From: Chloroflexota bacterium
Lineage (GTDB): Bacteria; Chloroflexota; Limnocylindria; Limnocylindrales; CSP1-4
NCBI GenBank assembly: GCA_021789435.1
Contig: JAJYJO010000002.1
Span: 3,713-67,712, forward strand
Direction: 5' to 3'
Length of the DNA: 64,000 bases
The translations under genes and the position numbers were made by a program. A model generated the notes under the pieces. The model had not been told where the DNA came from. It did not search any database and saw only the letters and a list, made by a program, of their open reading frames with translations. This document shows, in pieces, positions 2,542 to 30,373 of this stretch. Position 1 is the stretch's first letter, and every line of letters begins with the position of its first letter.

Positions 2542-3609
2542 GTGAGCCCGCGATGGCGACGCCCGGCGATGGTCTACAACTCGACCGCATGGCGGTGCTG
2601 GGCTTCCTGGGCACTCGTCGCCGGCGCCTCGGCAGTGCTCCTTGGCTCGCTCGTGCTCGAGGCGCAACGGACACTCAGCGCCCACTACCTGTTGGTCGAC
2701 TGGCGCACCTACGCGGCTGCCTTCGATCGGCTGGCCCAAGGCGCGAGCCTCTACGATCCGCGCCAGCTTCATGGGCCGTATGACCTACCGTCCGTAACCC
2801 TGACCGGGTACGCGTATCCACCCGTTGCGGCGCTGTTGTTCGCACCGTTCGCCTCGGTGCCATTGGGTCTGGCGACCTGGATCGCCCTGAACGTGGGCCT
2901 TGTCCTTGCCGGTCTCGCCGCAGCCATTCACTCCGCGTTTGGGCGGGTGCGGCCGGAAGCCGTGGCGTTCGCCCTGATCGCGCTCAGCGTATTCCCACCG
3001 TTTCGCGAAGGCGTTGCGGTCGGGAACATCAACGTGGGCTTCTCGGGACTGCTGGCCCTCGCCTGGGCCTCGGGTCGAACGGCTGGCTGGCTCGGCCCGG
3101 TCAGTGGACTCGCTGCGGCGCTGAAGGTCTTCCCTGGGTCCCTCGTGGCGTGGGCCGGTCCCGGCTACCGCACTCGGGCCCTTCTCTCCGCGACGTTGGT
3201 GGGAGCCGCCTTGGTTCTCGTGACTCTGCCTCTGGTTGGCGGCGCCAAGAGCTGGGAGGATTGGCTCACGGCTCTCGGCAACGCCCAACCCGCTTGCGCC
3301 CGGTGGAGCAACCTCTTGCCGTCGATAGCCTGCTCCCTGTCGCCATACGTCGGCTCGGACGTGGCCAAGCTGCTCGGCGGCGCTGTCGGCGCCACCCTCG
3401 CTCTGGCAGCCCTTCTCACGAATCGGACGCAACTCTCGCTGGCCTTGCTGACCGCGGCCTGGCTAGCGCCCGTCATCGACATGGATCCCTACTACCTCCT
3501 GACCCCGTTTGTCGTGGGTCTCGCCCTTCTCTTCCATCGTTTCGGGCGAGCCTCCAGCCGCGCCGTGAGTCCTGTGCCCCAAGAGGCCGAAGGCGACCGA
3601 GGAGGGTGA
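2542..3609 (+). CDS. DUF2029 / GT87-type membrane glycosyltransferase
   Basis: GTG start with GAGGT RBS 8 nt upstream. Multi-TM with the 'AALKVFPGSLVAW' K-x-P loop; divergent from the 990..2234 gene across a ~300 bp intergenic region. Confidence 0.6.
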   Translation: MSPRWRRPAMVYNSTAWRCWASWALVAGASAVLLGSLVLEAQRTLSAHYLLVDWRTYAAAFDRLAQGASLYDPRQLHGPYDLPSVTLTGYAYPPVAALLFAPFASVPLGLATWIALNVGLVLAGLAAAIHSAFGRVRPEAVAFALIALSVFPPFREGVAVGNINVGFSGLLALAWASGRTAGWLGPVSGLAAALKVFPGSLVAWAGPGYRTRALLSATLVGAALVLVTLPLVGGAKSWEDWLTALGNAQPACARWSNLLPSIACSLSPYVGSDVAKLLGGAVGATLALAALLTNRTQLSLALLTAAWLAPVIDMDPYYLLTPFVVGLALLFHRFGRASSRAVSPVPQEAEGDRGG

Positions 3610-3716
3610 GCCGGGAGTCTACCTGGCGGGCCTAGGGAGCCCGTACGAATGGTTCGCTCCCGCCGGTGATCGATCTCCTCTATGCTGCCCGGCACCCAAG
3701 TGGGACGAGGGGCGAA

Positions 3717-4430
3717 ATGAGGGATGACCGGCTCGGCGAGGCCGAAGCGCACGCCGTGGGACGACTGGCACTCCACGAAGGCACGCCCGCATGGGCTGAG
3801 TGGGTCAAGGACTACTACCGAGAAGTGGAGTCGTACGACTGGGTCGACGTCGCCGACCACTTCCGGGGCCCGGAGGCGTTCTTCCATAGAAATCGAGCCA
3901 GGGCCGTCCGTCACCTGATTCGAGAGCACGTCCAAAGGGGTCCGATCCTCGACGCCGGGTGCGGGACCGGACTGAACCTTCGTTCTCTTCCTGAAGGGTC
4001 AACGGGTCTTGACATCAACCCACGGAACATCGCGGTCATCAGAACCCGCCTTCCTCGCCACGAGGCAGTCCTTGGAGACATCGAAGCGATGCCCTTCGCC
4101 GATGGCACATTCCAGGCTGTGCTTTGTACCGAGGTCCTCGAGCACGTTCCCGATCCGAACAGAGCCCTGGCCGAGATCTACCGGGTGCTCGCCCTCGGTG
4201 GAGTCGTGATCGGCTCTGTACCCGCAAGAGCGCTGATATGGCGTCTGCGGTTCCTGTCCAGCACGTGCCCACATTCGGAGCCATTCCACCACGAGTACCT
4301 GCCGGCCGAGGTCGCGTCAATGCTCGACGGGTGGACGATCCGGGTCCTGCGCTACTCGCTCCTGCATTTCAACGTGTTGTTCGTCGCAGAGAAGGCCGGG
4401 CGGGAGGCGGCGGCTCGGCACCCATGGTGA
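3717..4430 (+). CDS. Class I SAM-dependent methyltransferase (alternative GTG start at 3666)
   Basis: Motif I 'ILDAGCGTGLN', acidic post-I 'LGDIEAMPF', 'VLCTEVLEHVPDP' and 'LALGGVVI' are canonical Rossmann MTase motifs. ATG 3717 has a GAGGGG RBS and a TATGCT -10-like hexamer at ~3681-3686. Confidence 0.7.
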   Translation: MRDDRLGEAEAHAVGRLALHEGTPAWAEWVKDYYREVESYDWVDVADHFRGPEAFFHRNRARAVRHLIREHVQRGPILDAGCGTGLNLRSLPEGSTGLDINPRNIAVIRTRLPRHEAVLGDIEAMPFADGTFQAVLCTEVLEHVPDPNRALAEIYRVLALGGVVIGSVPARALIWRLRFLSSTCPHSEPFHHEYLPAEVASMLDGWTIRVLRYSLLHFNVLFVAEKAGREAAARHPW

Positions 4431-4500: not shown

Positions 4501-5613
4501 TCACGCTCCTGACCCGACATCGACGGACCCTGGGCAATCCGAGCTTCCGGTGAGCAATGGCCCCACAAGACCTGGCGCGAACGCCACCGGAATGATCCAC
4601 GGCAACGGCAACCACGCCGAGAGCGGGATCAGGACCGCCCACCACTGGCGCCGCTGGAGCAGCAGGGCGGTGGGGATCAGCAGCAGCATCGCGTAGTGGT
4701 CCCAGAGGAGCGGCGAGAGCAGCTGGCTGGCCACGGCGGTGACGACGTAGGCGGTCTCCGCATCCGAGCGGAGCCAGGCATAGGCCGTGATGGCGATCGT
4801 CAGCGCCATGCTCGCCCACTGGACCAGGCTGGCCGCCGCCTCGCTCGCTCCCATCTGGTAGGCGACCGCGCCCGGCGTGAAGTTGTGGGGCGTGGTGACC
4901 GGGGCGCTCACCCGCCGCAGGATGGCTACATAGTCGGACCAGGCGGCGAGGCCCGTGACCAGCGTCCCCGCGAGGGCGCAGGCCGCGATTGCGATCACCC
5001 CGATCGCGATGGCGCGCCGGCGACCGCCGGCGAGCGCCCAGCCGAAGAGGAGGCCCGGCTGGAGCTTGATGAGCGTGCCGGCGGCCATCGAAAGCCCCAG
5101 CGGCCCCGGCCGGTCCAGCCAGCGCCAGCCGGCGGCGAAGGCGAGGAAGAGGAGCGGGCCAACCTGGCCCAGCTTGATCGAGTAGAGGAAGGGCCACTGG
5201 AGAGCCGCCAGCAGGACCACCAGCCAGCGGACCTCGCGGCGGACCGGCAACAGGGCGACGCCTGCCAGGAACGCCAGGGCCAGCAGGACCGTCCAGGCGG
5301 TCACGGCGATCGTCCCGGGCAGCAGGGCGAACGGCACCATCGCCAGGGCGAAGGGCGGCGGATAGAGGAAGATCGCGAACCCGCCGGCGACATTCACGGC
5401 CGGGTCGTACAGGCGCGCTCCGTCCAGGAGGCGCTGCCCGGCGTGGAGATAGGCCTTGAAGTCGTAGCCGAGGGTCGGGCCGGCGGCGACGGCGATCACG
5501 GCGATCGCCGCTCCGTACGCCAGCAGGGCCACAAGCGGGATCAGCAGCGCCGGCGCCCACGCGGGGCGGCGCTCCTCAGGCCGGGCGATCGCCGTCGGCA
5601 AGGGCCGCGCCAT
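4501..5613 (-). CDS. DUF2029 / GT87-type membrane glycosyltransferase
   Basis: 370 aa multi-TM with the 'GTLIKLQPGLLFGW' K-x-P loop. Its start overlaps the 3' end of the upstream GT2 gene by ~38 nt. Confidence 0.65.
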   Translation of the reverse strand: MARPLPTAIARPEERRPAWAPALLIPLVALLAYGAAIAVIAVAAGPTLGYDFKAYLHAGQRLLDGARLYDPAVNVAGGFAIFLYPPPFALAMVPFALLPGTIAVTAWTVLLALAFLAGVALLPVRREVRWLVVLLAALQWPFLYSIKLGQVGPLLFLAFAAGWRWLDRPGPLGLSMAAGTLIKLQPGLLFGWALAGGRRRAIAIGVIAIAACALAGTLVTGLAAWSDYVAILRRVSAPVTTPHNFTPGAVAYQMGASEAAASLVQWASMALTIAITAYAWLRSDAETAYVVTAVASQLLSPLLWDHYAMLLLIPTALLLQRRQWWAVLIPLSAWLPLPWIIPVAFAPGLVGPLLTGSSDCPGSVDVGSGA

Positions 5614-6397
5614 GCCGGCCCACCCCCCGATGGACGAGCGGGATGCGGAACAGGTCCCAGGCGACCCTGGCCGCCAGCCCGGGCCGCATCCGCATGTGCG
5701 AGCCGGCCCGGTCCGCCCAGTGGATCGGAACCACCGCCAGCCGGTAGCCGCGGCGCCGGGCCAGGTAGATGATCTCCACGTCGAAGACGATGCTGGTCAC
5801 CCGCTGCCGGCCGAAGAGGTCCTGCGCCGCCGACCTGCGGAAGCCCTTGAAGCCGCACTGCGTGTCGCGGATCGGCCCCGTCACCCACAGCGAGGCCAGC
5901 GCCCGGAAGAGTAGGCCGATCAGGCGCCGGTAGAGCGGCTGGCTGGCCCGCATGTCGCTCCCGTCCGGCTGGATCCGGCTGCCCAGCGCCACGTCGGACG
6001 TCTCCAGGGCGCGGGCCAGCAGCGGCAGCTGGTCCGGCGGGGTGGCCATGTCGGCATCCATGAAGACGACCAGGTCGGTCTCCGCCGCGAGCATGCCCGC
6101 CCGGACGGCCGCGCCCTTGCCACCGTGGGGGACCGCCAAGAGGTCGAGCTTCGGCCAAGCGCCCGTCGTCTCCCCGGCTTCGGGCCGGCCGCGGACCAGC
6201 GCCGCCGTGCCGTCCGAGCTCCCGTCGTCCACGACGAGCACCCGGACCCGGCCCGGCAGCGCCTCCGGGCCGGGCGATCCCTCCCGGGCGCGGTCGCCGG
6301 GCCGGCGGAGGTAGCCGAACAGCTCGTCCAGGGCGCCGCCGAGGCGCGCCTCCTCGTTGTAGGCGGGCAGGACGATCGTGAGCGACGTGCCGGTCAT
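5576..6397 (-). CDS. GT2 polyprenol-phosphate sugar synthase (Ppm1/DPM1/GtrB-like)
   Basis: Motifs 'LTIVLPAYNEE', 'VLVVDDGSSDGT', 'GKGAAVRAGM', 'DADMATPPDQL' and 'DTQCGFK' match dolichol/polyprenol-phosphate mannose (or glucose) synthases. Start ATG 6397 (MTGTSL) chosen; the upstream 165 codons of ORF 5576..6889 are a low-complexity extension. Confidence 0.75.
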   Translation of the reverse strand: MTGTSLTIVLPAYNEEARLGGALDELFGYLRRPGDRAREGSPGPEALPGRVRVLVVDDGSSDGTAALVRGRPEAGETTGAWPKLDLLAVPHGGKGAAVRAGMLAAETDLVVFMDADMATPPDQLPLLARALETSDVALGSRIQPDGSDMRASQPLYRRLIGLLFRALASLWVTGPIRDTQCGFKGFRRSAAQDLFGRQRVTSIVFDVEIIYLARRRGYRLAVVPIHWADRAGSHMRMRPGLAARVAWDLFRIPLVHRGVGRHGAALADGDRPA

Positions 6398-6408
6398 CGG
6401 GCCGAAGT

Positions 6409-7458
6409 CTAGAGCCCGCCGGGACCGGCCGGAGCGACGGCCGGCTGGGGAACCTCGGCGGTGGCAACCACCGCCGCCCGGCGACGGGTCAGCCGGCGCC
6501 CGAGCGCGATCGCCGGGCGCTCCACCACGAGGTAGGAGACCGCAGCGACCACCAGCGTCAGGGCGAGCGCCAGGACGGCCGCCGGCGCGCCGGTCGGGCC
6601 GAGCCGGAGCACGGCCCGGATGACGTCCTCGTGCCACAGGTAGATTGCATAGGAGAGCCCGCCCGCCCAGGCCGCCCACGGGCCGAGGGCGGGCCGGCGC
6701 GCGACGCACCAGGCCACGAGCAGCATCGCCCCGGCCGTCGTCACCAGGTCGACCGACGCCCAGATGGCGAACGCGACCCCGAGGAGCACCAGCTGGGCCC
6801 CGGGAATGACCCAGAGCGGGTTGCGGAAGATGCCCAGGCGACCTCGCACGTCGAGGATGGCCAGGAGCATCCCCGGCACGAATGCCCACAGGAAGAAGGG
6901 CAGGAGACTCACGACCTGCGCCCGGTTGGCCAGCCCTCCCGAGAGGTCGTACAGCACCACGACGCTGGCGCCGAAGGAGACGAGGCCCAGGCCGGCCACG
7001 ACGCGAAGCTCCCGACCGCGGGCGAGGAGGGCGATGCCCGGCAGCAGGAGGTAGAAGCCCATCTCCAGCTGCAGGGTCCAGCTGACGCCCAGGAAGCCGT
7101 TGAAGAGCCGGGGATCATAGTTCTGGGCGAAGAGCAGGAACTCCGCGGGGTGATCCAGGAAGGCCTGGCTGCCGCTCAGCAGGGTCACCCCGACGAGGGC
7201 CACCAGGTAGGCCGGGTAGATCCGCAGCAGCCGCCGCACCAGGTAGGACCGGACGTTCCAGTCGCCGGCCACGAACGGCCGGTAGAGCAGGTAGCCTGAC
7301 AGGACGAAGAAGACGAGCACACCGACGCGACCGCCGGCGGCGAAGCCGGCCGCGGGGCCCAGGGCGGCCGGGTCCAGGATCGCCACGTGGCAGACGAGGA
7401 CCATGAGCGCGGCGATGCCGCGGAGGGCGTCGAGCGCCTCCAGGCGACGGCCGCTCAC
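6409..7458 (-). CDS. Acyltransferase family 3 (OafA/OatA-like membrane O-acyltransferase)
   Basis: Motifs 'RRLEALDALRGIAALMVLVCH', 'VLVFFVLSGYLL' and 'LGVSWTLQLEMGFYLL' are acyl_transf_3 signatures. GTG start at 7458 overlaps the stop of the upstream GT87 gene (GTGA). The listed 786-aa ORF 6409..8769 is a fusion artefact. Confidence 0.7.
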   Translation of the reverse strand: MSGRRLEALDALRGIAALMVLVCHVAILDPAALGPAAGFAAGGRVGVLVFFVLSGYLLYRPFVAGDWNVRSYLVRRLLRIYPAYLVALVGVTLLSGSQAFLDHPAEFLLFAQNYDPRLFNGFLGVSWTLQLEMGFYLLLPGIALLARGRELRVVAGLGLVSFGASVVVLYDLSGGLANRAQVVSLLPFFLWAFVPGMLLAILDVRGRLGIFRNPLWVIPGAQLVLLGVAFAIWASVDLVTTAGAMLLVAWCVARRPALGPWAAWAGGLSYAIYLWHEDVIRAVLRLGPTGAPAAVLALALTLVVAAVSYLVVERPAIALGRRLTRRRAAVVATAEVPQPAVAPAGPGGL

Positions 7459-8669
7459 CGCGCGAACTCCGCGTGGACCGCGGCGCGAGCCCCGCCGGCG
7501 ATCGCCGCCAGGACGAGGCCGACCGCCAGCCAGACCAGGACCGGGGCCACGATCGAGACGATCGCGGCCAGCACCGCCAGCCCCAGGACGACCTGGACGG
7601 CGAGGGCGCGGCGCCCCCCGGTCGCCAGCAGCCAGGCGGCGACCCCGAACGGGATCAGGGCCACCGGGTAGTGGAACCAGGTCACCGGCAGGACGGCGAG
7701 CGAGGCGACCGCCGCCCAGGCCAGGCTCTCCAGGGGGTCCGCCCGCAGCCATGCGGCGGCCACCGTGACCGCCACGGCGACCGCGGCCACGACCACGGCC
7801 AGCGGCCGGGCCACGGCCGGGCTGCCCAGCAGCAGGGCCAGCTGACTGGCCGGCCCGATGTTGAGCCGGGAGGCGAGGTCGGCCCCGGAGCTGGTCCGGA
7901 GCATCGCCACGTAGTCCGCCCAGGGCCCCGTCCCGAAGGCGGCCAGGCTCCCGCCGAGAACCGCCGCGGCCGTGACGACCGCCGCTCCAAGGACCGTCCA
8001 GGCCGGGCCGCGGCCGCGCAGGGCCCGCACCAGGAACCAGAGCCCCAGGACGGCGGGATGGACCTTGATGACGCTGGCCAGGCCGAGCGCGACGCCGCCG
8101 CCGATGAGCGTGGCCCGCCCGGCCCCGCCCGCCTCGGCCAGCGCCGCCAGGAGGACCAGCCCGTAGAGGAGGCCGAACCAGGCGTCCACGTTGCCGAAGA
8201 GGAGGGCCACGGCGAAGGGCGACACGAACGGCGCCAGGGCCAGGAGCGGCAACAGGACGGCGGGCGCCGGCCGCCCCGGGGCAAGGCGACGCGCCAGCAG
8301 GACTGCGACCAGGCCCAGGCCCGCCGTGGCGCCCACGCCCCACAGCGCCAGTGCCGCACCGGACGGAAGCCCGGCCACGGGGGCCAGCGCCTGGGCCAGG
8401 GGCGGCGGGTAGGAGTAGAAGAGGTCGCTGGCCTGGAGGCGGCCGGCCACGGCCGCCGGGTCGTAGGGGGAGCCACCGCCGGCGACGCGGCGGGCCGCGT
8501 CCAGGATCAGCTGGAGATCGAAGCCGGCCTGCGGCGGATGCTGGGCCAGCATCGTCGCCCCGAGCTGGAGCAGGCCGAGCCAGCCGACGCCTCCGAGCAC
8601 GGCCCAGCCGAGCAGCCCGGGACGACGGGCGACCATCGGCGGCGCCGCGGTGCGATCCATCCGCGGCAT
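7455..8669 (-). CDS. DUF2029 / GT87-type membrane glycosyltransferase
   Basis: Start ATG 8669 (MPRMDRTAAPP...). Multi-TM with 'LASVIKVHPAVLGLWFL' K-x-P loop. It is the real C-terminal part of the artefactual 1110-aa ORF 7455..10787. Confidence 0.65.
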   Translation of the reverse strand: MPRMDRTAAPPMVARRPGLLGWAVLGGVGWLGLLQLGATMLAQHPPQAGFDLQLILDAARRVAGGGSPYDPAAVAGRLQASDLFYSYPPPLAQALAPVAGLPSGAALALWGVGATAGLGLVAVLLARRLAPGRPAPAVLLPLLALAPFVSPFAVALLFGNVDAWFGLLYGLVLLAALAEAGGAGRATLIGGGVALGLASVIKVHPAVLGLWFLVRALRGRGPAWTVLGAAVVTAAAVLGGSLAAFGTGPWADYVAMLRTSSGADLASRLNIGPASQLALLLGSPAVARPLAVVVAAVAVAVTVAAAWLRADPLESLAWAAVASLAVLPVTWFHYPVALIPFGVAAWLLATGGRRALAVQVVLGLAVLAAIVSIVAPVLVWLAVGLVLAAIAGGARAAVHAEFAR

Positions 8670-8723
8670 CGTAGACCCCCGCCGAAGCGCCAACAGGCCG
8701 CCGACCGGCGGTCGGGGCGTGGG

Positions 8724-8765
8724 CCATTCGTACCGGTCGGAGGCGCCGGGACCCGGTGCTAGACT
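8724..8765 (+). promoter_or_regulatory. Promoter-like element CCATTCGTAC-N13-CCGGGACCCGGTGCTAGACT (extended -10 TGcTAGACT at 8757-8765) in the divergent GT87/GT-C intergenic region
   Basis: The -10-like TAGACT lies 9 nt upstream of the GTG start at 8775, so the transcript is probably leaderless. An almost identical element (CCATTCGTA-N..-CCGGGACCGGTGCTACAGT) occurs upstream of cpaB at 16610-16649. Confidence 0.45.
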
Positions 8766-8774
8766 GCACCGGCC

Positions 8775-10433
8775 GTGCGGAGACCCATCGCCCTCTATGC
8801 GTTCGCCCTGCTCGTCCGGCTGGGGTTGATTGCGGCCTTCCCTCATCCGGCCTATGTCGATTCCTACTACTACGTCAACGTGGCGCAGGCGCTCCAGGCC
8901 GGCCACGGCCTCAACATCGACTTCATCTGGGCCTTCGTGGATGTGGGCGGCCGGCTGCCGGCGAACCCCCACCTCCCGATCCCGAGCAACGCCCACTGGA
9001 TGCCGCTGGCGTCCCTGGTCCAGGTCCCCTTCCTGGCCCTCTTCGGCTCGGCCTCCTGGGCTCCCCAGGTCCCCTTCGCCCTCTTCGGGGCGCTCGCCGC
9101 GCCGCTCACCTGGGCGATCGCGCGCGAGGCCGGGGCGAGCCGGTCGGTCCAGCTCGGCGCCGGCCTGCTGGGCGCGGTTCCGGCCGGGGCCACCATCTTC
9201 ATGAGCCAGCCCGACAACTTCGGGCTGTACGAGGTGCTGGGCGCGGCGGCCCTCTGGCTGACGGCGCGCGGGCTCCGGGGGGACAGCCGCGGCTTCGCCC
9301 TGGCGGGCCTGCTGGTGGGGTTCGCCACGCTGGCCCGCAACGATGGCGTGCTGATCGGGCTGGTGGTGGCCCTTGCCTTCTTCTGGGACCGCTGGCGGGC
9401 CTGGCGTTCCGGCGGCGGCCGGCGACCGGCCATCCCGTTCTGGTCCGCGGTCGCCTGCGCGGCGCTCTTCGCCGTGGTGATGGTCCCCTGGTATGCGCGC
9501 GAGCTGGCCGTCTTCGGCAGCATCTCGCCCTCGTCCTCGTCCGGCCGGATCCTCTTCATCCGGGATTTCGCCGAGATGAACAGCATCACCACGCCCACCA
9601 CCCTGGCCTACTTCCTGGGCCAGGGGATCGGGCCACTGGTCACGAGCCGCGTCCTGGGCCTGGTGGCGGCGGCCGCCAACTTCGCCGTCATCATCTGCTC
9701 GCTGGTGCTGGCCCCGTTCCTGGTGGTGGGGGCCTGGCGAAGGCGCCGATCCGGTGATTTCGGGCCGTTCCTGGTCTACTTCGCCGTCCTCTTCGCCTTC
9801 TCCGCCCTGGTCTCCGCGGTCCACGTACCGTACGGGACCTTCCTCCACTCTGCGGTGGCGCTCGCTCCGCACACCTACGTCCTGGCGCTTGAGGGCGTGG
9901 TCGCCGCCGTCGGCTGGGTGGCCCGTCGCCGTCGGTCCTGGCACGAGGAGCAGGCGGTGCCGGTCTTCCTGTGGGGCACGGTGGGCCTGACGATGCTGAC
10001 CGCGGCGGCCTTCACCGTGAGCGTGGTCAACGGCTGGACGGTGGAGCGGAACTACCAGCTGGCGGTCGCCGCGAAACTGGACCGCCTGGGGGTGCCGGCT
10101 TCCGACCGGCTGATGACGATCGACGCGGGCGGCTACCGCTACACGACCGGGCACGGCGGGGTGGTGACGGTCAACGACCCACTGCCGACGATCGAGCAGG
10201 TGGCGAAGGCCTACGACATCCGCTGGCTGGTCCTGGAGCGGGGCCACATCGTCCCGCCGCTGGTCCCGGTCCTGGGCGGCCAGGTCCACCAGTCCTGGAT
10301 CGGGCCGCCGGTGCTGACGATCCCCTCCTCCGTGGCGGCCGGCACGTATCCGGAGCTGGCGCTGTACCCGGTCTGCGTGGCGCCGGGCGACGCGCGCTGT
10401 GCCGCGTCGACAGCGGCCGGGGCCACGCCATGA
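8775..10433 (+). CDS. GT-C membrane glycosyltransferase, PMT_2/ArnT-like (GT39/GT83-like)
   Basis: 552 aa; N-terminal TM then loop 'HPAYVDSYYYVNVAQAL' (acidic/aromatic loop-1 motif), ~11 TM helices and a C-terminal periplasmic domain. It is a paralog of the next gene. Confidence 0.65.
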   Translation: MRRPIALYAFALLVRLGLIAAFPHPAYVDSYYYVNVAQALQAGHGLNIDFIWAFVDVGGRLPANPHLPIPSNAHWMPLASLVQVPFLALFGSASWAPQVPFALFGALAAPLTWAIAREAGASRSVQLGAGLLGAVPAGATIFMSQPDNFGLYEVLGAAALWLTARGLRGDSRGFALAGLLVGFATLARNDGVLIGLVVALAFFWDRWRAWRSGGGRRPAIPFWSAVACAALFAVVMVPWYARELAVFGSISPSSSSGRILFIRDFAEMNSITTPTTLAYFLGQGIGPLVTSRVLGLVAAAANFAVIICSLVLAPFLVVGAWRRRRSGDFGPFLVYFAVLFAFSALVSAVHVPYGTFLHSAVALAPHTYVLALEGVVAAVGWVARRRRSWHEEQAVPVFLWGTVGLTMLTAAAFTVSVVNGWTVERNYQLAVAAKLDRLGVPASDRLMTIDAGGYRYTTGHGGVVTVNDPLPTIEQVAKAYDIRWLVLERGHIVPPLVPVLGGQVHQSWIGPPVLTIPSSVAAGTYPELALYPVCVAPGDARCAASTAAGATP

Positions 10434-12121
10434 GCGCCCCGCGCACGCCCGCGCCGGACGCCTTCGTCCTGTCGCCCCGCGAGGCCTGGCTGAGTGCCGG
10501 CCTCGTCTTCCTGGTGGCGCTGGCCGTCCGGGCCGTCTCCGCGGCCGGGGTGCCGTTCCCGGTCCCGGAGGACACCGCCTACTACGTGGAGGTGGCCCGC
10601 AACCTGGTCCAGGGCCGCGGCCTGGTGAGCGACGCGCTCTGGAGCTACCAGACACCGGCCCTGGACCCGGCGACGGGGACCTTCGGGCTCTTCTTCCCGC
10701 GGCCGGCCTTCGAGGTCTGGCTGCCGCTGCCGAGCCTGCTGATGGCCGTCCCGATGCTGCTCTTCGGGCCGACCTTCCACGCCGCACAGGTCATGTCGGT
10801 CCCGGTCGGGGCGCTCGTGCCCGTGCTGGCCTGGCGCCTGGGCGCCGACGTGGCGGCGGAGCTGGGCCTGCCGGCGGGGCGGGCGCGGACGATGGCCCTG
10901 GGCGCCGGCCTCTGCGCCGCGGTGTTCGGGCCGCTCGTCCTGCACAACCTGCTGCCGGACTCCACGATGGTCTTCGCGGTCCTCGCTCTCTGGGCCTGCC
11001 TGCTGATGGAGCGGCTTGTCCGGGACGCAAGCGGGGGACGGCGGATCGCGTCGCTGGACCGCCGGCTGCTGGGACTGGGCGTCCTGCTGGGGCTGGCCGC
11101 CGTGACCCGCAGCGAGGCGGCCTGGGTCGCCCTGACCTGGGCGCTGCTGGCCTGGCTGGCCGTACCGGGAGCGCGCCGGGAGCGGCTCCGCCTGGTCGCG
11201 GTCCCGGCGGTCGTGGCGCTGGCGGTCTTCGCTCCCTGGGGGATCCGCGACTGGCGGATCTTCGGCTCGCCGCTGCCCGGTCAGACCGCGGCCAATGCCT
11301 TCTCCGTGACCGGCTTCGACATCTTCGCCTACCAGGTCCTGCCCACCCTCCAGCGCTACCTGGCGCAGGGTCCGGCGGCGCTGCTCCGGATGCGCGTGGA
11401 GGGCTTCGACCACAACCTCTTCTCCGTCCTCCTGATCCCCGCCGTGCCGGTCGGGCCGCTCGGCCTGCTGGCCCTGCCCTGGACCGGCCGGCTGCGGTCG
11501 CTCCGGCCACTGCTGATCGTGAGCCTCCTCACCTTCACCATCACGACCCTGGTCTTCCCGGTCGCCACGACCTGGGGCACCTTCCTCCACGCGGCCGGGC
11601 CGGTGCACGTCCTTCTGCTGGTCAGCTGCCTGGTGGCGCTCGACGCGGTGATCGCCCGGGTCGGGCGCTGGCGCGGCTGGACGCGGCCGGTCGCCTGGCT
11701 GGGCCCGGCCCTGGTGGCAGGGGTCGCCGCGCCCTTCCTGCTTCTGACGGTGACCGGGATCGGCAGCCTGGCAGCGGACACGCAGGCTCGCTACGCGGCC
11801 CTGCCGGGCCGCCTGGCGGCCGCCGGCATCCCGCTCTCGGCCGACGCGCCGGTCGTGACGGACTTCCCGATCTGGCTCTCCTACGCGGACGGCGTCCCGA
11901 CCCTGGCCCTGCCCGACGAGTCGCCGGCCAGCGTGCTGTCGCTCGCCCAGCGGTTCGGGGCCCGGCTGCTCGTGGTGCAGAGCAGCGGCCACGGCGCGTG
12001 GCCCCAGGTCATCGAAGGCCCGAACGCCCCGCCCGGGGCGGCCTGCTTCCAGGCGGTCCCGCTGCCGCCGGCCGGGGCCGCCCTGGCCGAGACGCGTGCG
12101 TACCTCATCGTCTGCCGCTGA
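10430..12121 (+). CDS. GT-C membrane glycosyltransferase, PMT_2/ArnT-like, tandem paralog of 8775..10433
   Basis: ATG 10430 overlaps the upstream stop (ATGA). Loop-1 motif 'PVPEDTAYYVEVARNL', many TM helices. It is in frame with the tail of the listed ORF 9971..12121. Confidence 0.6.
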   Translation: MSAPRTPAPDAFVLSPREAWLSAGLVFLVALAVRAVSAAGVPFPVPEDTAYYVEVARNLVQGRGLVSDALWSYQTPALDPATGTFGLFFPRPAFEVWLPLPSLLMAVPMLLFGPTFHAAQVMSVPVGALVPVLAWRLGADVAAELGLPAGRARTMALGAGLCAAVFGPLVLHNLLPDSTMVFAVLALWACLLMERLVRDASGGRRIASLDRRLLGLGVLLGLAAVTRSEAAWVALTWALLAWLAVPGARRERLRLVAVPAVVALAVFAPWGIRDWRIFGSPLPGQTAANAFSVTGFDIFAYQVLPTLQRYLAQGPAALLRMRVEGFDHNLFSVLLIPAVPVGPLGLLALPWTGRLRSLRPLLIVSLLTFTITTLVFPVATTWGTFLHAAGPVHVLLLVSCLVALDAVIARVGRWRGWTRPVAWLGPALVAGVAAPFLLLTVTGIGSLAADTQARYAALPGRLAAAGIPLSADAPVVTDFPIWLSYADGVPTLALPDESPASVLSLAQRFGARLLVVQSSGHGAWPQVIEGPNAPPGAACFQAVPLPPAGAALAETRAYLIVCR

Positions 12122-12146
12122 TAGCCGCCCGTATACTCGATCGACG

Positions 12147-13271
12147 ATGGACGCCGGACGGACGGGGACGGACGCGCGCGAGGGCCGCTTCGACGAGCTC
12201 TATGCCGAGGCGAAGGCGACCCTGGGCTATGGCGCCAACACGCTCCGCTCGATCAGCGAGCGCTACCGCGAGGTTTACCGCGACGCGCTCGCCCGCTGGC
12301 ACGCCCTGCGCGACGAGCTGGAGGCGGTGGATCGCGCGACGCCCGGCGCCGCCCCTCCGACAGACGCGGGTGACGCGGCCGCTGTGGACGGCCTGCCCGG
12401 ACCTGCCGGGGCGCTGGCGGCCGAGGCCGGCGCCGAGGATGCCCGCCGGCGGGCGCTGCGGTCGGACGTGGAGCGGATGACCGGCGACCTGGGCCGCCAC
12501 CAGGGCGAGCTCTCCAAGCTGGAGCTGACCGTCCGGAGCATGGAGAGCGGCTGGCTCTTCCTGGAGCGCGGCGACGTCAGCCTGCTCACCGAGCGCGACG
12601 TGCCCTGGTTGCCGACGGACATCCAGATGCGGATCGTGGAGGCCCAGGAGGCCGAGCGGTCGCGCCTGGCCCAGGAGGTCCACGACGGGCCCGCCCAGGC
12701 GCTCTCCAACGCGATCTTCCAGGTGGAATACATCGAGCGGGTGCTGGACCAGAACACCCGGCTGGCGCGGACCGAGCTGCGCTTCCTCCGGGAGCTGCTG
12801 CGCCGCGAGCTGGGCGACGTCCGGACCTTCATCAGCCAGCTCCGGCCCCCGCTCCTCGACGAGCTGGGCCTGGACGGGACGATCCTGGACGCCGTGGAGA
12901 ACATGGCCGCCCTCGCCGGCATCACCATCGAGACGGAGCTGGCCGCGCCGGGCGACCGGCTCTCCGACGTGGAGCAGGCGGGCGTTCTCCGGATCGCCCA
13001 GGAAGCGCTCCAGAATGTGCGCAAGCACGCCGGGGCCCGGCGGGCCGTGGTGGCCACCCGCCTCGAGGGGACCGACTGGGTCCTGGAGGTGCGGGACGAC
13101 GGCCGGGGCTTCGACATCGGCCAGGTGGCCACCCGCGGCCGCCGCAACTTCGGCCTCCAGTTCATGCGGGAGCGGGCCGACCTGATCGGCGCCCGCTTCG
13201 AGGTTCGTTCTCGCCCCGCCGGGGGCGCCATCGTCTGGCTCGCCATCCCGATCGGAGAGGAGGGTTCATGA
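12147..13271 (+). CDS. Cytoplasmic sensor histidine kinase, HisKA_3/DegS-like
   Basis: No TM; coiled-coil N-terminus. H-box 'LAQEVHDGPAQALSNAIFQVEYI', N-box 'QEALQNVRKHA', G1 'VRDDGRGFD', G2 'GLQFMRERA'. TATACT -10-like hexamer at 12132-12137 lies 9 nt before the ATG (leaderless). Confidence 0.75.
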   Translation: MDAGRTGTDAREGRFDELYAEAKATLGYGANTLRSISERYREVYRDALARWHALRDELEAVDRATPGAAPPTDAGDAAAVDGLPGPAGALAAEAGAEDARRRALRSDVERMTGDLGRHQGELSKLELTVRSMESGWLFLERGDVSLLTERDVPWLPTDIQMRIVEAQEAERSRLAQEVHDGPAQALSNAIFQVEYIERVLDQNTRLARTELRFLRELLRRELGDVRTFISQLRPPLLDELGLDGTILDAVENMAALAGITIETELAAPGDRLSDVEQAGVLRIAQEALQNVRKHAGARRAVVATRLEGTDWVLEVRDDGRGFDIGQVATRGRRNFGLQFMRERADLIGARFEVRSRPAGGAIVWLAIPIGEEGS

Positions 13272-14011
13272 GCGCAATGGAGTACCAGGGCCCGGAGCGG
13301 CGGCGCGGCGGCCCGGACCGTCGCGGCGGGGAGAAGACCCGCATCCTGCTGGTGGACGACCACGCCCTCTTCCGGGTGGGCATGCGCAACATCCTCGAGC
13401 GCGAGCCCGACTTCGTGATCGTGGGCGAGGCGGACGACACCCGCAGCGCCTTCGACGGTGCCGTGGAGAACGCCCCGGACATCATCCTGATGGACCTCTC
13501 GCTCCCGCCTCCCGGCGGCATCGAGACGACCCAGCGCATCAAGCGCGAGCTGCCCGCGGCGGGGATCATCGTCCTGGCCGTCAGCGAGGACGAGGACCTG
13601 CTCTTCGACGCGATCAAGGCCGGCGCGGCCGCCTTCATCCTCAAGGACATCGGCCCCGACGACCTGGTGACGATCATCCGCCGGGTCGCGACCGGCGAGT
13701 TCCTGATCAACGACAAGGTTTTCTCGCGGCCGGCCGTCGCCAGCCGGGTCCTCAAGGAGTTCCGCGAGCTGGCCATCTACGGCCAGGAGGCCGCCCCGAT
13801 CTTCGCCCCTCTCTCGCCGCGGGAGGTCGAGATCCTGGACAACATCGCCCAGGGGATGACCAACAAGCAGGTTGCCTATGCCCTCTCGATCAGCGAGCAG
13901 ACGGTCAAGAACCACATGAGCTCGATCCTCCGCAAGCTGAGCGTCAACGACCGGACCCAGGCGGTCGTCTACGCCATGCGCCAGGGCTGGATCCGGATGC
14001 CCGAGGACTGA
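13268..14011 (+). CDS. Response regulator, NarL/LuxR family (DegU-like)
   Basis: ATGA overlap with the kinase. Receiver 'RILLVDDHALFRVGMR ... IILMDLSLP' plus C-terminal LuxR HTH 'LSPREVEILDNIAQGMTNKQVAYALSISEQTVKNHMSSILRKL'. Confidence 0.8.
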   Translation: MSAMEYQGPERRRGGPDRRGGEKTRILLVDDHALFRVGMRNILEREPDFVIVGEADDTRSAFDGAVENAPDIILMDLSLPPPGGIETTQRIKRELPAAGIIVLAVSEDEDLLFDAIKAGAAAFILKDIGPDDLVTIIRRVATGEFLINDKVFSRPAVASRVLKEFRELAIYGQEAAPIFAPLSPREVEILDNIAQGMTNKQVAYALSISEQTVKNHMSSILRKLSVNDRTQAVVYAMRQGWIRMPED

Positions 14012-14017
14012 GGCAGG

Positions 14018-15244
14018 GTGAGCGACCCGCAGCCGGCCTCCCCGGCCTCCCCGGCCGGCCTGGCCGACCTGGCAGCCGGCACGCGCCGGCAGGTCGACCT
14101 GCTCGGGGTGGAGCTGGCGGAGATCGACCTGCTGGTCGCCCAGGCCAGGTCCGAGGCCGGCCGGCACGAGCAGAGGCGCGTCCAGGCGGCCGAGAAGAGC
14201 AAGGCGGCGACCGACCGCGGCGCCGACGCGGCCGAGCTCGCGGAGCTGGGCCGCCAGCTCGTGGCCGCCACCCGGCGGGCGGCCGTCATGGAAGCCCAGG
14301 TGGACGTGCTGGAGGGCAAGCAGAAGGTCCTGGGACGCTTCCGCGACAGCCTGGCCGGCGAGGCGGTGGTGCTGGAGCGGCTGGCCGGCGGTGGCGGGGC
14401 ATCCGGCGGCGCCGCGGCGGGCGCGCTCGGGCCGGCTTCGGCCACGGAGGGCGAGCCGGGCGTGCTGCCGGCCGGGGTCTCCCGGCTGCTGCTGAGCGCC
14501 CAGGAGGACCTCCGCCGGGACATCGCCCGGGCGATGCACGACGGCCCGGCCCAGAGCCTGACCAACATCGTCCTCCAGGCCCAGATCGTGGATCGCCTCC
14601 TGGGCCGCGACGCGGCCGCGGCGGCGGCCGAGCTGCGCCAGCTGGTGGCGATGGTCCAGGCGACGCTGGAGGCCACAAAGTCCTTCATCTTCGACGTCCG
14701 GCCGATGGTCCTCGACGACCTGGGGCTGGTGCCGACGATCCGGCGGGCGGCCCTGGAGCGATCCCGCCGCGCCCGCATCCCGGTCGCGTTCGAGTCGGTG
14801 GGACTGGACCGCCGCCTGCCGATGGACGTGGAATCGGGCCTCTTCCGGATCCTGGACGAGGCGACCGAGGCCTATCTCGGCCTCGAGCCGGACCGGGTGC
14901 TGATCGACCTCGACTGGTCGGAGCGGCTGGCCGCCCGGGTCCGCGCGGTGCGCGACGCGGCGCCACAGGCGGAGGAACCGGCCGCGGCCGGCGGGGCGTC
15001 GGGCCGGCGCCGCCTGCGCTGGGGACGCGGCCGCGACAAGGAGCCGGAGGTGCCGGCTGCTCTCGCCGCCATGATCGAGGAGCGCCGGAGCGCGGAGGAG
15101 GCCGCCCGGACACCGGCCCCGATCGGCCTGCCCGCGCCCGCCTGGCGAGCCATCCAGCAGCGGGCCGCGGTGATCTCGGTGAGCGTGGAGCTCGCCGATG
15201 AGGGGCGCGACCTGCGCGTCGGCTTCGAGCCCGGCCGGGCCTGA
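14018..15244 (+). CDS. DegS-like histidine-kinase paralog with degenerate catalytic (CA) domain, a putative pseudokinase or phosphatase
   Basis: Coiled-coil N-terminus and intact DHp H-box 'IARAMHDGPAQSLTNIVLQAQIV'. The N-box is replaced by 'LDEATEAYLGL' (no Asn/Lys/His), there is no DxGxG, and there is an Ala-rich insert. Confidence 0.55.
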   Translation: MSDPQPASPASPAGLADLAAGTRRQVDLLGVELAEIDLLVAQARSEAGRHEQRRVQAAEKSKAATDRGADAAELAELGRQLVAATRRAAVMEAQVDVLEGKQKVLGRFRDSLAGEAVVLERLAGGGGASGGAAAGALGPASATEGEPGVLPAGVSRLLLSAQEDLRRDIARAMHDGPAQSLTNIVLQAQIVDRLLGRDAAAAAAELRQLVAMVQATLEATKSFIFDVRPMVLDDLGLVPTIRRAALERSRRARIPVAFESVGLDRRLPMDVESGLFRILDEATEAYLGLEPDRVLIDLDWSERLAARVRAVRDAAPQAEEPAAAGGASGRRRLRWGRGRDKEPEVPAALAAMIEERRSAEEAARTPAPIGLPAPAWRAIQQRAAVISVSVELADEGRDLRVGFEPGRA

Positions 15245-15246
15245 CC

Positions 15247-15459
15247 GTGGGGACGGCGCTCCTTCGCGACGGCCGGGAGGCCCCGGCCCGCCTGCTGGCG
15301 GCCGCGCGCCGGCTCTCCCGGGAAGAGGCCCAGGGCCTGGTGGAGTACGGCCTGATCCTGGCCCTGATGGCCCTGGTGGCGGTCGTGGCCCTCACCTTCT
15401 TCGGCGGCGAGCTCTCGACCCTGCTCAGCGTGGTCGGCGGAGCGGCCAGCGCCGGTTGA
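15247..15459 (+). CDS. flp: Flp/Fap family type IVb prepilin (flp1); start uncertain
   Basis: C-terminal '...EEAQG|LVEYGLILALMALVAVVALTFFGG' matches the Flp processing and hydrophobic-core motif. GTG start immediately after the upstream stop. Confidence 0.6.
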   Translation: MGTALLRDGREAPARLLAAARRLSREEAQGLVEYGLILALMALVAVVALTFFGGELSTLLSVVGGAASAG

Positions 15460-15566
15460 GGGTGGTGCGTCCGCTCCTAGGACGAATTGCCTAATGGATT
15501 CTGCGGTCCGTGCCGCCTACAGTCCTGATGCCCCGCTCTGGGGTCCGCTCTCATCGGGAGGCTTGT

Positions 15567-15746
15567 ATGGCGCTCGTCAATCGGCTCTACGCGTTCCTCG
15601 CCACCTTCGGTCACGACGAGGAAGGCCAGGGTCTCGCCGAGTACGCGCTGATCCTCGCCCTCATCGCGATCCTGGCGATCATCGCCCTGCTCTTCCTGGG
15701 CGGCCAGGTCAAGACGATCCTGAGCAACGTCGGCAACTCGATCTAG
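15567..15746 (+). CDS. flp: Flp family prepilin (flp2)
   Basis: ATG 15567 with GGGAGG RBS. 'MALVNRLYAFLATFGHDEEGQG|LAEYALILALIAILAIIALLFLGGQVKTILSNVGNSI'. The last 132 nt (15615..15746) are 131/132 identical to flp4. Confidence 0.75.
   Translation: MALVNRLYAFLATFGHDEEGQGLAEYALILALIAILAIIALLFLGGQVKTILSNVGNSI
15615..15746 (+). repeat. 132-bp direct repeat (copy 1; copy 2 at 16372..16503), 131/132 identical, covering the mature-pilin-coding part of flp2 and flp4
   Basis: Direct sequence comparison; single C/T synonymous difference. Confidence 0.8.
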
Positions 15747-15768
15747 CTCGCCGTCTGCGACCGACAAC

Positions 15769-15801
15769 GTGAAGGCCGCGCCCGGTGGGCGCGGCCTTCA
15801 C
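15769..15801 (+). terminator. Perfect 15-bp stem / 3-nt loop GC-rich hairpin after flp2 (intrinsic-terminator-like, no U-tract)
   Basis: gtgaaggccgcgccc-ggt-gggcgcggccttcac, 23 nt after the flp2 stop. Confidence 0.5.
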
Positions 15802-15966
15802 GCGTCGGGACGCCGTTGACGGCGCCTCGCCGTCGCCACGAGCGTTCCCAACTGCCCGGCTGCGGGAGGGCCGCCACCGGTTCATCGCCGTCATCCCGGG
15901 TGCCGCGCACCACTGCCCTCGCCGGGGGAGAGGCGGGGAGCCTCGAAGGAAAGGAGGTGGTGGAGC

Positions 15967-16140
15967 GTGTCCAGCGCAGTCGCACTCATCTCATCCATCA
16001 TCCGGCGCGACGACCGCGGCCAGGGCCTGGCCGAGTACGCACTCATCCTCGCCTTGATCGCGGTCGTGGCGATCGTCTCGCTCATGTTCCTGGGGCAGAA
16101 CGTCCAGACGCTGATCAGCACCGTGGGAAGCTCGGTCTGA
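15967..16140 (+). CDS. flp: Flp family prepilin (flp3), 57 aa, below the ORF-track length cut-off
   Basis: GTG start preceded by AAGGAGGTG SD (15951-15959). 'MSSAVALISSIIRRDDRGQG|LAEYALILALIAVVAIVSLMFLGQNVQTLISTVGSSV'; stop TGA 16138-16140. Its 5' leader is homologous to that of flp4. Confidence 0.7.
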   Translation: MSSAVALISSIIRRDDRGQGLAEYALILALIAVVAIVSLMFLGQNVQTLISTVGSSV

Positions 16141-16180
16141 GCGGGCGGAGCAGGAAAGCACCGATACCGGCCCTGACCCC

Positions 16181-16209
16181 TTGACAGCCCGCGGACACGC
16201 GCATAGGGT
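16181..16209 (+). promoter_or_regulatory. Sigma-70-like promoter TTGACA-N17-TAGGGT upstream of flp4
   Basis: TTGACA at 16181-16186, 17-nt spacer, TAGGGT at 16204-16209. Confidence 0.4.
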
Positions 16210-16329
16210 GGCGCGGCCAGTCGACCAGGGAGGCGGTGGGAGCCAGCATCGGGCTCGGAAGCCTGCCCGGCCGTGACGGCAACCCCCGCCCGGGGGCGGG
16301 GAGTCTCGAGGAAAGGAGGTGCCCACCCC

Positions 16330-16503
16330 ATGACCTATCTCATGGCTCTCATCTCGTCCTATCTTCATCGTGACGAGGAAGGCCAGGGTCTCGCCGAGTA
16401 CGCGCTGATCCTCGCCCTCATCGCGATTCTGGCGATCATCGCCCTGCTCTTCCTGGGCGGCCAGGTCAAGACGATCCTGAGCAACGTCGGCAACTCGATC
16501 TAG
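16330..16503 (+). CDS. flp: Flp family prepilin (flp4), near-identical duplicate of flp2
   Basis: ATG 16330 with GAAAGGAGGTG SD. Sequence from the DEEGQG|LAEYAL processing motif to the C-terminus is identical to flp2; the DNA differs at one synonymous site (ATC/ATT). Confidence 0.75.
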   Translation: MTYLMALISSYLHRDEEGQGLAEYALILALIAILAIIALLFLGGQVKTILSNVGNSI

Positions 16504-16526
16504 CGAGCGCCGTCGTTCTCGATCCA

Positions 16527-16552
16527 AGGGGCCGCGCCTTCGGCGCGGCCCC
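16527..16552 (+). terminator. GC-rich hairpin (11-bp stem, ttc loop) after flp4
   Basis: ggggccgcgcc-ttc-ggcgcggcccc, 24 nt after the flp4 stop; it separates the pilin array from cpaB. Confidence 0.5.
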
Positions 16553-16603
16553 TCCGTGTCCCGGGGGATCCCTCCTGTCAGCCGGGCGATTCGTCCCGCG
16601 CGT

Positions 16604-16649
16604 CCTAGGCCATTCGTATAGTCGCGGGCCCCGGGACCGGTGCTACAGT
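16604..16649 (+). promoter_or_regulatory. cpaB promoter-like element: CCTAGG-CCATTCGTA-N..-CCGGGACCGGTGCTACAGT (extended -10 TGcTACAGT at 16641-16649)
   Basis: Shares CCATTCGTA and CCGGGACC(C)GGTGCTAnAnT with the 8724-8765 element. A related CCTAGG-N36-TACAGT architecture sits upstream of flp2 (15476-15531). Confidence 0.45.
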
Positions 16650-16683
16650 GGTGCCACCTGTCACAAGGCTGGGGAGAGGGTGT

Positions 16684-23634: not shown

Positions 23635-23855
23635 ATGGGGGCGCGATGGGTGCGTGGCCGGCTGGGCGGTCGGTGCGTGGGCTCGCGCCCGAGCGCCGCG
23701 AGAAACGCCATTCGTCACCCGATCGAAGGGCCGAGGGTGGGGTTCGGCCCATCGACCGGCCGGGTCTATACTCGACGCGTGACCGGCCCATCAGTCACGA
23801 GACGCGCGTCACCGCCACCAGCGGAGGCGCGCGTCATGTGTTGCGGAGGTTTGCG

Positions 23856-24455: not shown

Positions 24456-24737
24456 GGGGACCGCGGGCGACCGGGACCGCGAGACGCGGCCGTCCCGAGC
24501 GGCGCGCTCGCTACCGCCGAGAGGCGTCCTCCGTGCCGCCGGCCCCCCGCGAGCCCCATCCGGCCCGCCGGCCACACCCGGCCCCGCCGGCCACACCCGG
24601 CCCCGCCCTTATGCGGTGAGACGCACAGCGCAGATGGGCCGACCGGCTCTCGCGACCCTGACCGCCCGGCGCAGCTCTGGCCGACCGGCGCCGCTGCCCC
24701 CGAGAGCGGGGCACCGGCGCGGCTACGATAGGCGGCG

Positions 24738-28798: not shown

Positions 28799-29200
28799 GG
28801 GCTGCCCGGCACTCCTGCTCCCGCGCGGCGGTGCCGCGATGCGCCAACTATCGCCACGGCGCGGGCCGGTCGATATGACCCGTTGGTACCGGGGGGTGCC
28901 GACCGCTCGGCGTCGCGGCTGCAAGCCGGGCAGCAAGGCGGAGCGGGTGCGGTGGCGAAAGGCGTCGTGCCCGGGGCCTCGGGGTACGGCGCATCACCCG
29001 CCGGCGGGCGGGGGGCAGCGAGTGGGGAGCGGCCGGAGTGGGGAGCGGCCGGAGCGGCCGGACGACCAGGGGCCGGGGCGCAGGACGAGGCTCGGCAGTG
29101 AACGCGGGGGCGAGTTCACCTGTCTCGCCCCCGCGCAGCGGGCCGACGGTTGCCGAGGGGGTGCAGCGGCCGACCCGAGGATCGATGGCTGTTCCCGAGG

Positions 29201-30163: not shown

Positions 30164-30373
30164 ATCGGGACTCCTCCAGCCGTGAGACGTGGGCGACGGC
30201 GTCACACCCGGTCGCGATGTCCGGGCACTGGCTACGCTACGGACCTCGCCCCGGGTCGTCTGTCGGAACGGGCGCCCTTTGGCTGTAGGAGTCTTCCCAC
30301 AGCGCTCGTACGGTGGCAGAATCCGGAGGCGGTGCTTGTGCGTCTCCAGGCATCCCGGCCAGGGAGGCGCGCC

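Follow-up and report, generated by a model that had tools for sequence, protein, structure and literature searches.

What do a glycosyltransferase operon and a Flp/Tad pilus locus have in common that nearly identical sequences should stand upstream of both? The stretch analyzed here (the window, 64,000 nucleotides in full) comes from a metagenome-assembled genome of the Limnocylindria, an uncultured class of the Chloroflexota. It carries such sequences before a GT-C (PMT_2) glycosyltransferase gene starting with GTG at 8775 and before cpaB, starting with GTG at 16684. A preliminary description had taken them as a shared promoter-like element of about 42 bp and had proposed a single regulon of glycosyltransferase and pilus genes. 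Both sequences were found where it had placed them: GGCCATTCGTAC at 8722-8733 followed by CCGGGACCCGGTGCTAGACT at 8746-8765 before the GT-C gene, and GGCCATTCGTAT at 16608-16619 followed by CCGGGACCGGTGCTACAGT at 16631-16649 before cpaB. We consider it likely that the shared element combines a transcription factor site with an extended -10, tying the glycosyltransferase and Flp/Tad pilus genes into a conserved regulon.

The 9-mer CCATTCGTA occurs in three exact copies in the window, at 3644 (reverse strand) and at 8724 and 16610 (forward strand). Dinucleotide-preserving shuffles of the window gave an expectation of 0.04 and reached three copies in none of 100 trials, which agrees with the earlier judgment that the 9-mer is improbable by chance. 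When up to one mismatch was allowed, 8 matches were obtained against 2.9 expected. None of the five one-mismatch matches scores as a site with the position weight matrix (PWM) of the 17-bp motif described below, and several lie inside coding sequence; the one at 23708 is intergenic, yet no -10 stands at the proper distance from it. The downstream block, CCGGGACC(C)GGTGCTA, was found in the window only at the two named sites (8746 and 16631), with 0 expected.

To follow these sequences through the class, we assembled 80 loci with a GT-C orthologue, one genome per species with 10-kb flanks, and aligned the unique upstream regions of 75 GT-C and 46 cpaB genes. Both elements are kept 5′ of the orthologous genes across the Limnocylindria, in about 70 species for GT-C and about 45 for cpaB, as the interpretation of both as promoter regions had anticipated. 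The GT-C consensus reads aTAGcCcaTTCGTACCGGtcgGA, about 15 variable nucleotides and cCGGTGCTACgCT-GCACCGGCC-GTG; that of cpaB reads CCTAGcCCaTTgGTATAGTCGCGc, a variable stretch and GGTGCTACAGT-GGTGCCACCTGTCACA, followed by a Shine-Dalgarno sequence and the start codon. Common to the two families is an asymmetric 17-mer, (C/A)TAG-SCC-NTT-S-GTA(C/T)-NG. In the window, the predicted factor site of GT-C is GTGGGCCATTCGTACCG (8719..8735, forward, PWM score of 20.6 bits) and that of cpaB is CTAGGCCATTCGTATAG (16605..16621, forward, 29.1 bits), with the family consensus aTaG.ccaTTCGTACCG over 71 unique orthologous GT-C promoters and CTAGcCCaTTGGTATAG over 42 unique cpaB orthologues. The 17-mer and the -10 are retained in both sets of upstream regions while the CpaB protein itself is only about 43% identical (median). 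CCATTCGTA would thus be the core of a 17-bp factor site and neither a -35 nor a -10 element. Of the 42-bp block, the 17-mer and the -10 proved conserved, whereas CCGGGACC falls outside the conserved element: it is part of a GC-rich spacer that varies between species, the conserved part of its block being GGTGCTA(nnnT). An IUPAC version of the motif, TAGNNNNNTTNGTAC, was dropped, as it missed the window's own sites, each of which deviates in one half.

The PWM, built from the GT-C and cpaB copies of the 17-mer, was scanned over 1.36 Mb of cluster neighborhoods, giving 157 matches of at least 13 bits against 11 in reversed or complement-only controls. The strong matches beyond the two training families formed a third family of 21 loci, in which the motif is on the other strand, immediately 5′ of the first flp pilin gene (flp1) and about 6.6-6.75 kb beyond the GT-C start. 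A fourth family was seen in an independent set of 80 metagenome loci (329 kb) retrieved with the XRE-family regulator of the window as query: of 43 matches of at least 13 bits, 40 lie no more than 140 nt upstream of the XRE gene, all in reverse orientation, and 53 of the 70 unique upstream regions score at least 9 bits. The window carries both. Its flp1 copy, TTAGGCAATTCGTCCTA (15478..15494, reverse), is a degenerate one of 7.3 bits 5′ of the first full flp gene (ATG at 15567), where the orthologous position scores 13-25 bits in the 21 loci. Its XRE copy, ATGACCCGTTGGTACCG (28875..28891, forward, hence reverse relative to the gene), scores 16.2 bits. The idea of one regulon for glycosyltransferase and pilus genes gains from this recurrence of the same conserved motif at flp1 and at the gene of the XRE regulator, which the preliminary description had named.

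In the DNA sampled overall (1.36 Mb, 0.33 Mb and the 64-kb window, all of it cluster neighborhoods), motif copies are confined to orthologous promoter positions and do not behave as a dispersed repeat. In favor of chance similarity, a dispersed repeat or a mobile element in GC-rich intergenic DNA, the CCGGGACC part of the shared block is not conserved between species. This explanation is refuted by the conservation of the motif at orthologous positions, with fixed geometry, in about 80 species; the excess of exact CCATTCGTA copies and the count of two stray matches in the 329 kb of XRE neighborhoods point the same way, and we regard its probability as negligible. Matches to CCA(T/C)TCGTActtgta, found in many loci about 3.4 kb upstream of GT-C, were set aside as apparent antisense of conserved coding sequence; their flanks are conserved in a gene-like manner and show no promoter features.

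The distance between the 17-mer and the -10 was compared over the four families. From the edge of the 17-mer, it measures 23-24 nt in 66 of 69 GT-C promoters (forward), 22 nt in 29 cpaB orthologues and 24 nt in the 12 of a divergent subgroup (forward), 23 nt at flp1 (reverse) and 22 nt at XRE (reverse). In the window, the flp1 copy lies 23 nt from the -10 TACAGT at 15518-15523, a spacing shared by 15 of the 21 flp1 loci, and the XRE copy 22 nt from the -10 GATAGT at 28852..28847. Among the reverse sites, 50 of 50 at XRE and 21 of 21 at flp1 have a -10-like hexamer 21-25 nt away on the gene side, against 3 of 50 and 3 of 21 on the far side. The fixed distance in either orientation therefore identifies the motif as a transcription factor site and not as a directional sigma box.

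The same geometry decides against reading CCATTCGTA as a -35-like box of an alternative sigma factor, which would make the group a shared sigma regulon. A fixed distance to a -10-like hexamer is what such a box would show, and CGTA does resemble the -10 motifs of extracytoplasmic function (ECF) sigma factors. Sigma elements are directional, however, and the motif stands in reverse at flp1 and XRE with equal spacing; moreover, the 25-27 nt between GTA and the -10 (22-24 nt when counted from the edge of the 17-mer) exceed the spacing of a -35/-10 pair. An ECF-type reading with CGTA as the -10 fails as well, since no common box lies 16-17 nt upstream of CGTA in the GT-C and cpaB alignments. A sigma regulon is therefore very improbable. 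Nor is the motif an RNA element, given that it precedes the transcribed sequence and occurs in both strand orientations. An RNA leader or riboswitch was also sought directly and rejected: Rfam families gave no match in the window, and folding (z = -1.7, +0.8 and +0.9) was no better than that of shuffles.

The preliminary description had called TGcTAnAnT extended -10-like, and the alignments agree. The GT-C promoter carries TGC-TAGACT (8757..8765, forward), 24 nt 3′ of the 17-mer, and the cpaB promoter TGC-TACAGT (16641..16649, forward), 22 nt 3′ of it; both are TAnnnT hexamers preceded by TGn. A2 and T6 of the hexamer are invariant, as are TGCTA and the final T over 48 aligned GT-C promoters. 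An Escherichia coli-type scan for promoters (TTGACA-N16-18-TATAAT) and terminators, covering 8500-8900 and 15200-16800, gave nothing at the sites: it found no TTGACA-like -35 at 16-18 nt, the hexamers at the would-be -35 positions being TCGGAG and GTCGCG. For a neighboring flp gene, a canonical TTGACA-N17-TAGGGT was read by eye at 16181-16209; canonical -35/-10 sequences therefore occur in this organism. The four tandem flp genes have differing promoter types, the first full one being that with the factor site.

The GT-C start codon follows the -10 by 9 nt in the window and by 8-10 nt in all orthologues, so that the GT-C mRNA would be leaderless or nearly so, with a predicted transcription start at about 8772. 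Other two-block promoters place an ATG 7 nt after the -10 (loci L071 and L069), and the divergent GT87 gene has a -10-like TACGAT at 8673..8668 (reverse), 7 nt before its ATG at 8660. These distances suggest leaderless mRNAs for GT-C, for the divergent GT87 gene and for the methyltransferase gene of L071. In this respect, the promoters resemble the leaderless, -35-less promoters of actinobacterial type, having TAnnnT with an upstream TG and, in the three genes just named, a start codon 7-10 nt after the -10. They differ in the additional conserved factor site, and leaderless translation is here predicted from spacing.

The cpaB promoter raises a further alternative, namely tandem promoters, in which the upstream block would itself be a -10 region and the downstream block part of a conserved 5′ leader. 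Its GTA half reads TGGTATAGT, which is invariant and forms a perfect extended -10. Some flp promoters of other loci show TTGACA-N16-CTCGTAccgT, with the TA of the motif starting the -10, and the stretch that separates the two blocks holds GC-rich inverted repeats. This arrangement does not extend to the other families: the equivalent hexamer of the GT-C, flp1 and XRE promoters, TACCGG or TACCAA, does not end in the T that a -10 requires. In all species, only 9 nt (within the range given above) separate the GT-C start codon from the downstream -10, and the would-be leader RNA folds no better than shuffles (z = -1.7 and +0.8) and matches no Rfam family. We hold tandem promoters to be improbable.

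We propose instead a promoter module made of the 17-bp asymmetric motif and a sigma-70-type extended -10 (TGCTAnnnT, or nATAGT at some promoters), without a recognizable -35. One transcription factor would bind the 17-mer, centered about 44 bp upstream of the predicted start, and would recruit RNA polymerase in place of the -35 contact, as in class-II-type activation. The target promoters would be those of the GT-C (PMT_2) operon, cpaB-tad, the first flp gene and the XRE-family regulator gene, joined in some genomes by the methyltransferase gene and GT-C paralogues and possibly, from about -66, by the divergent GT87 operon. Polyprenol-dependent glycosyltransferases and the Flp/Tad pilus would thereby be switched together.

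The position of the motif fits this scheme. Its center falls at about -44 (±1-2), calculated from the usual 7-nt distance between -10 and start, in all four families and in either orientation, which is within the class II range of about -41 to -45. As at class II activator promoters, a fixed factor site abuts or replaces the -35, next to a good -10 (here extended) and with no -35. The lux box of LuxR is centered at -42.5, and lambda CI bound at OR2 activates PRM from about -42. The present element differs from the LuxR and lambda CI cases in its center at about -44 instead of -41.5 or -42.5 and in its asymmetric motif with no clear palindrome; activation is a prediction here.

Repression has also to be considered. 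The 17-mer could be a repressor operator, for example of an autoregulating XRE protein that silences the promoters of the pilus and glycosylation genes until released by a signal. XRE-family proteins are mostly repressors, and binding to the promoter of their own gene is common among them. The motif is found at the XRE promoters of the retrieved loci, and the folds closest to the XRE helix-turn-helix (HTH) include SinR, DdrO, phage repressors and controller C proteins. Three points make this explanation quite unlikely. First, repressors usually act at the -10 or the start; the site overlaps neither and is placed upstream of the -35 region, at about -52 to -36. Secondly, promoters without a -35 should need help to fire. 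Thirdly, activators in contact with RNA polymerase typically show such strict helical positioning in both orientations.

Which protein would bind the motif? The candidate falling nearest to an even chance is the NarL/GerE-type response regulator of the cluster (13268-14011, forward; Response_reg and GerE domains). It is flanked by HisKA_3 proteins in mid-cluster, an arrangement conserved in 61 loci; its closest solved structures are NarL (E = 2e-36) and VraR, and 52 of the 56 residues of its GerE HTH are invariant among 63 orthologues. The XRE/HTH_3 protein (179 amino acids, 28262-28798, reverse) comes second, as a serious possibility, and a third protein is doubtful. The XRE gene carries the motif on its own promoter, at about -43. 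Residues 4-62 of the protein are nearly invariant (57 of 59 positions in 32 homologues, from species with GT-C proteins only about 60% identical), and its C-terminal tail is variable and disordered. Sequence search retrieved about 3,900 relatives (E ≤ 1e-8), all with generic annotation, and no solved relative. The AlphaFold model, with a mean predicted local distance difference test (pLDDT) score of 61, is confident for the HTH domain only, and a fold search with it gave nothing beyond generic XRE/Cro-type domains, the closest being those of controller C proteins, SinR, DdrO and phage repressors. An attempt to separate the two candidates by conservation failed, both DNA-binding domains being near-invariant.

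Known pilus regulators give partial precedents for the response regulator. The tad locus of Pseudomonas aeruginosa is under direct control of the NarL/LuxR-family regulator PprB (PMC3510237), and that of Pectobacterium is activated by a two-component system adjoining flp/tad (PMC3767616). Both systems place a NarL/LuxR-family regulator and a kinase beside the tad genes, and the regulator acts on flp and assembly promoters (PMC3510237, PMC3767616). The window resembles the PprAB arrangement in its kinase, GerE-type response regulator and kinase genes set between the glycosyltransferase operon and flp/cpaB. The flp1 and cpaB promoters share a common motif, which is also present at the XRE promoter and which either candidate may bind. 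The 17-mer does not match the reported PprB site, GGCTAATAC (PMC6821963). The regulon further differs from that of PprAB in taking in GT-C/GT87 operons and the XRE regulator, and in its host, a Chloroflexota lineage.

The response regulator is most similar to NarL, whose heptamer consensus is TACYYMT as quoted in PMC4886647 and whose 7-2-7 site is TACYYMT-NN-AKRRGTA. Read on the other strand, the GTAC end of the motif gives TACCAAT or TACGAAT, which matches the heptamer at 5-6 of 7 positions. The other half, TAGCCCA, is a poor NarL heptamer, and the TA steps are 11 bp apart, within a 13-bp span against the 16-bp span of a 7-2-7 site, such that two heptamers would overlap by 1 bp. The motif is thus not a 7-2-7 member.

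Some of the controller C proteins and phage repressors that the XRE HTH resembles activate transcription from the -35 region; for C proteins, the promoter activated in this way is their own, bound on its upstream side. The XRE HTH superposes on C.AhdI with a root-mean-square deviation of 1.0 Å and 42% identity over 53 residues. In contrast to the setting of C.AhdI and C.Esp1396I, no restriction-modification system is present; the XRE protein also differs in its disordered tail and a further helical region, and its predicted site is not a C-box.

A more sweeping version of the regulon would have a single class-wide factor, XRE or NarL-type, coupling the Tad pilus to GT-C/GT87/GT2 glycosylation. 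It would do so through one orientation-independent site, at -44 and, for the divergent operon, at -66; we judge this version as a whole rather unlikely.

Several observations weigh against the activator-driven regulon that we favor. Activation and repression look alike at the sequence level, and the distance of -44 depends on the assumed 7 nt between -10 and start. A homodimeric HTH protein would not usually bind a motif that, like this one, is asymmetric and not clearly made of two half-sites, and the near-invariant DNA-binding domains leave the response regulator and the XRE protein inseparable. Two of the window's own copies are imperfect, that of flp1 being degenerate (7.3 bits) and that at 3641-3657 lacking the TAG half. 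The invariant extended -10 inside the cpaB motif would also permit a tandem upstream promoter. Finally, outside the sampled neighborhoods there may be further members of the regulon or a wider spread of the motif.

The third exact 9-mer of the preliminary description points at no gene in its own orientation and fits a reverse site of the methyltransferase gene. It belongs to a partial copy, GCGAACCATTCGTACGG (3641..3657, reverse, PWM score below 7, TAG half missing), between a GT87 gene (2542-3609, forward) and the methyltransferase gene (3717-4430, forward). The copy lies 23 nt from TATGCT (3681-3686, forward) and 19 nt from TAGACT (3621..3616, reverse). It is probably the reverse site of the methyltransferase promoter and a weaker member of the group; it may otherwise be an inverted remnant or belong to an antisense promoter, the 19-nt TAGACT layout being that of the L069 promoter. 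Elsewhere, the methyltransferase gene, on the same strand as GT-C in other genomes, carries a forward copy of the motif in L071 and L069 and none in two other genomes. A separate sequence, CATGAC(C/T)TTCGGG(T/G)GG, occurs 5′ of this gene, replacing the 17-mer or beside it (L033 at about 8430, L056 at about 7300, L069 at about 8180).

The GT-C site sits in a 114-bp divergent region between the GT87 operon (reverse) and the GT-C operon (forward), its center at about -45 from the predicted GT-C start and about -66 from the predicted GT87 start. The GT87 hexamer TACGAT lies 45 nt from the site, and reverse-strand TAnnnT hexamers peak at 43-46 nt from it in 21 loci, the sequence between not being conserved. 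This is suggestive of the same site serving the GT87 promoter from about -66, two helical turns further, so that one factor could serve both operons. A second GT-C-like gene has a two-block promoter of its own in some loci: a site, 24 nt, TGCTAGGCT, and a start codon 9 nt on (L062 and L076 at about 12777; L056 at 8049).

Other conserved sequences surround the promoters. A palindrome, CCGGTGC-N6-GCACCGG (8753..8772), encloses the GT-C -10 and pairs across species, with 85% of cells paired against 16-55% in slid controls. It is conserved in most species, with few compensatory changes; a few species among the orthologues L001-L082 have a different yet complementary pair, such as CCCGA...TCGGG in L053. 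A second regulator may use the palindrome as its operator. The cpaB promoters retain a related GGTGC...GCCACC arrangement.

In the cpaB leader (16650..16683, forward), the alignment of 46 orthologues shows the near-invariant GGTGCCACCTGTCACA (16650-16665) and the Shine-Dalgarno sequence GGGGAGAGGG. Lying directly after the -10, GGTGCCACCTGTCACA is nearly invariant class-wide and far more conserved than the CpaB protein; it could be a start-site region, an operator or a leader element. About 20 nt 5′ of the 17-mer, cpaB loci have a conserved TTCTTCCTAATGG (for example L004 at about 18030). They also show an AATGG-N7-CCATT near-palindrome centered on CTAG, which may be a second, overlapping reverse half-site and which is lost in the window copy (16588-16604). 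In many species, a hairpin-like AGCCCTCA-N4-GGGG and then GTACTCATCCAGGAGG precede the ATG in the 5′ leader of flp1 (for example L020 at about 16700-16760, L007, L043); the leader in the window (15524-15566) has a more diverged version.

The genes of the cluster were assigned with Pfam. On the reverse strand, the divergent GT87 gene (7455-8660; E = 1.7e-20) is accompanied by an acyltransferase gene (6409 to about 7500), a GT2 gene (5576-6889 as maximal open reading frame) and a second GT87 gene (4501-5613). On the forward strand, the GT-C gene (8775-10433; GT39-like, its product a 100% match to a protein with PF13231 from an NCBI metagenome-assembled genome) is followed by a second GT-C-like membrane protein (10399-12480), a HisKA_3 kinase (12096-13271), the response regulator, a second HisKA_3 protein (14018-15244), the four tandem flp genes (15247-16505) and cpaB, cpaE, cpaF, tadB and tadC (16684 onwards). 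A comF-like gene, hpf, a sugar-phosphate-isomerase-like gene and another PMT_2 gene occupy 22915-27277 (forward). Divergent from the XRE gene is a second regulator with Response_reg and GerE domains (29150-31012, forward), the listed open reading frame of which seems over-extended at its 5′ end.

This order is kept in other Limnocylindria, from the GT87 genes through GT-C, the second GT-C, the kinase-regulator-kinase genes and flp to cpaB-cpaE-cpaF. The synteny tadB-tadC-comF-hpf-APendo-PMT_2-XRE is also conserved, so that the XRE gene is tad-syntenic though 12 kb off. Relatives of the GT-C protein at 55-65% identity are annotated as Candidatus Limnocylindria or Limnocylindrales, phylum Chloroflexota.

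Limnocylindria are abundant in soils and fresh water. To our knowledge, nothing is known of the regulation of their genes, and no paper connecting the class with pili turned up in a literature search. The present finding supplies a cis-element, a promoter architecture (extended -10, no -35, predicted leaderless starts, site at about -44) and two candidate regulators. The regulon is new; its mechanism, a transcription factor site common to several promoters, is a textbook one. It would join adhesion pili to envelope or protein glycosylation and predicts that pilus production and GT-C-dependent glycosylation are turned on together. Such co-switching would point to pilin or envelope glycosylation in the surface attachment of Limnocylindria. 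If the single class-wide factor were real, the Flp pilins, or the envelope crossed by the pilus, would be glycosylated by GT-C enzymes; we know of no GT-C modification route for Tad pili. The element thus opens the regulation of an uncultured and abundant lineage to direct tests and gives a hint of pilus-linked glycosylation.

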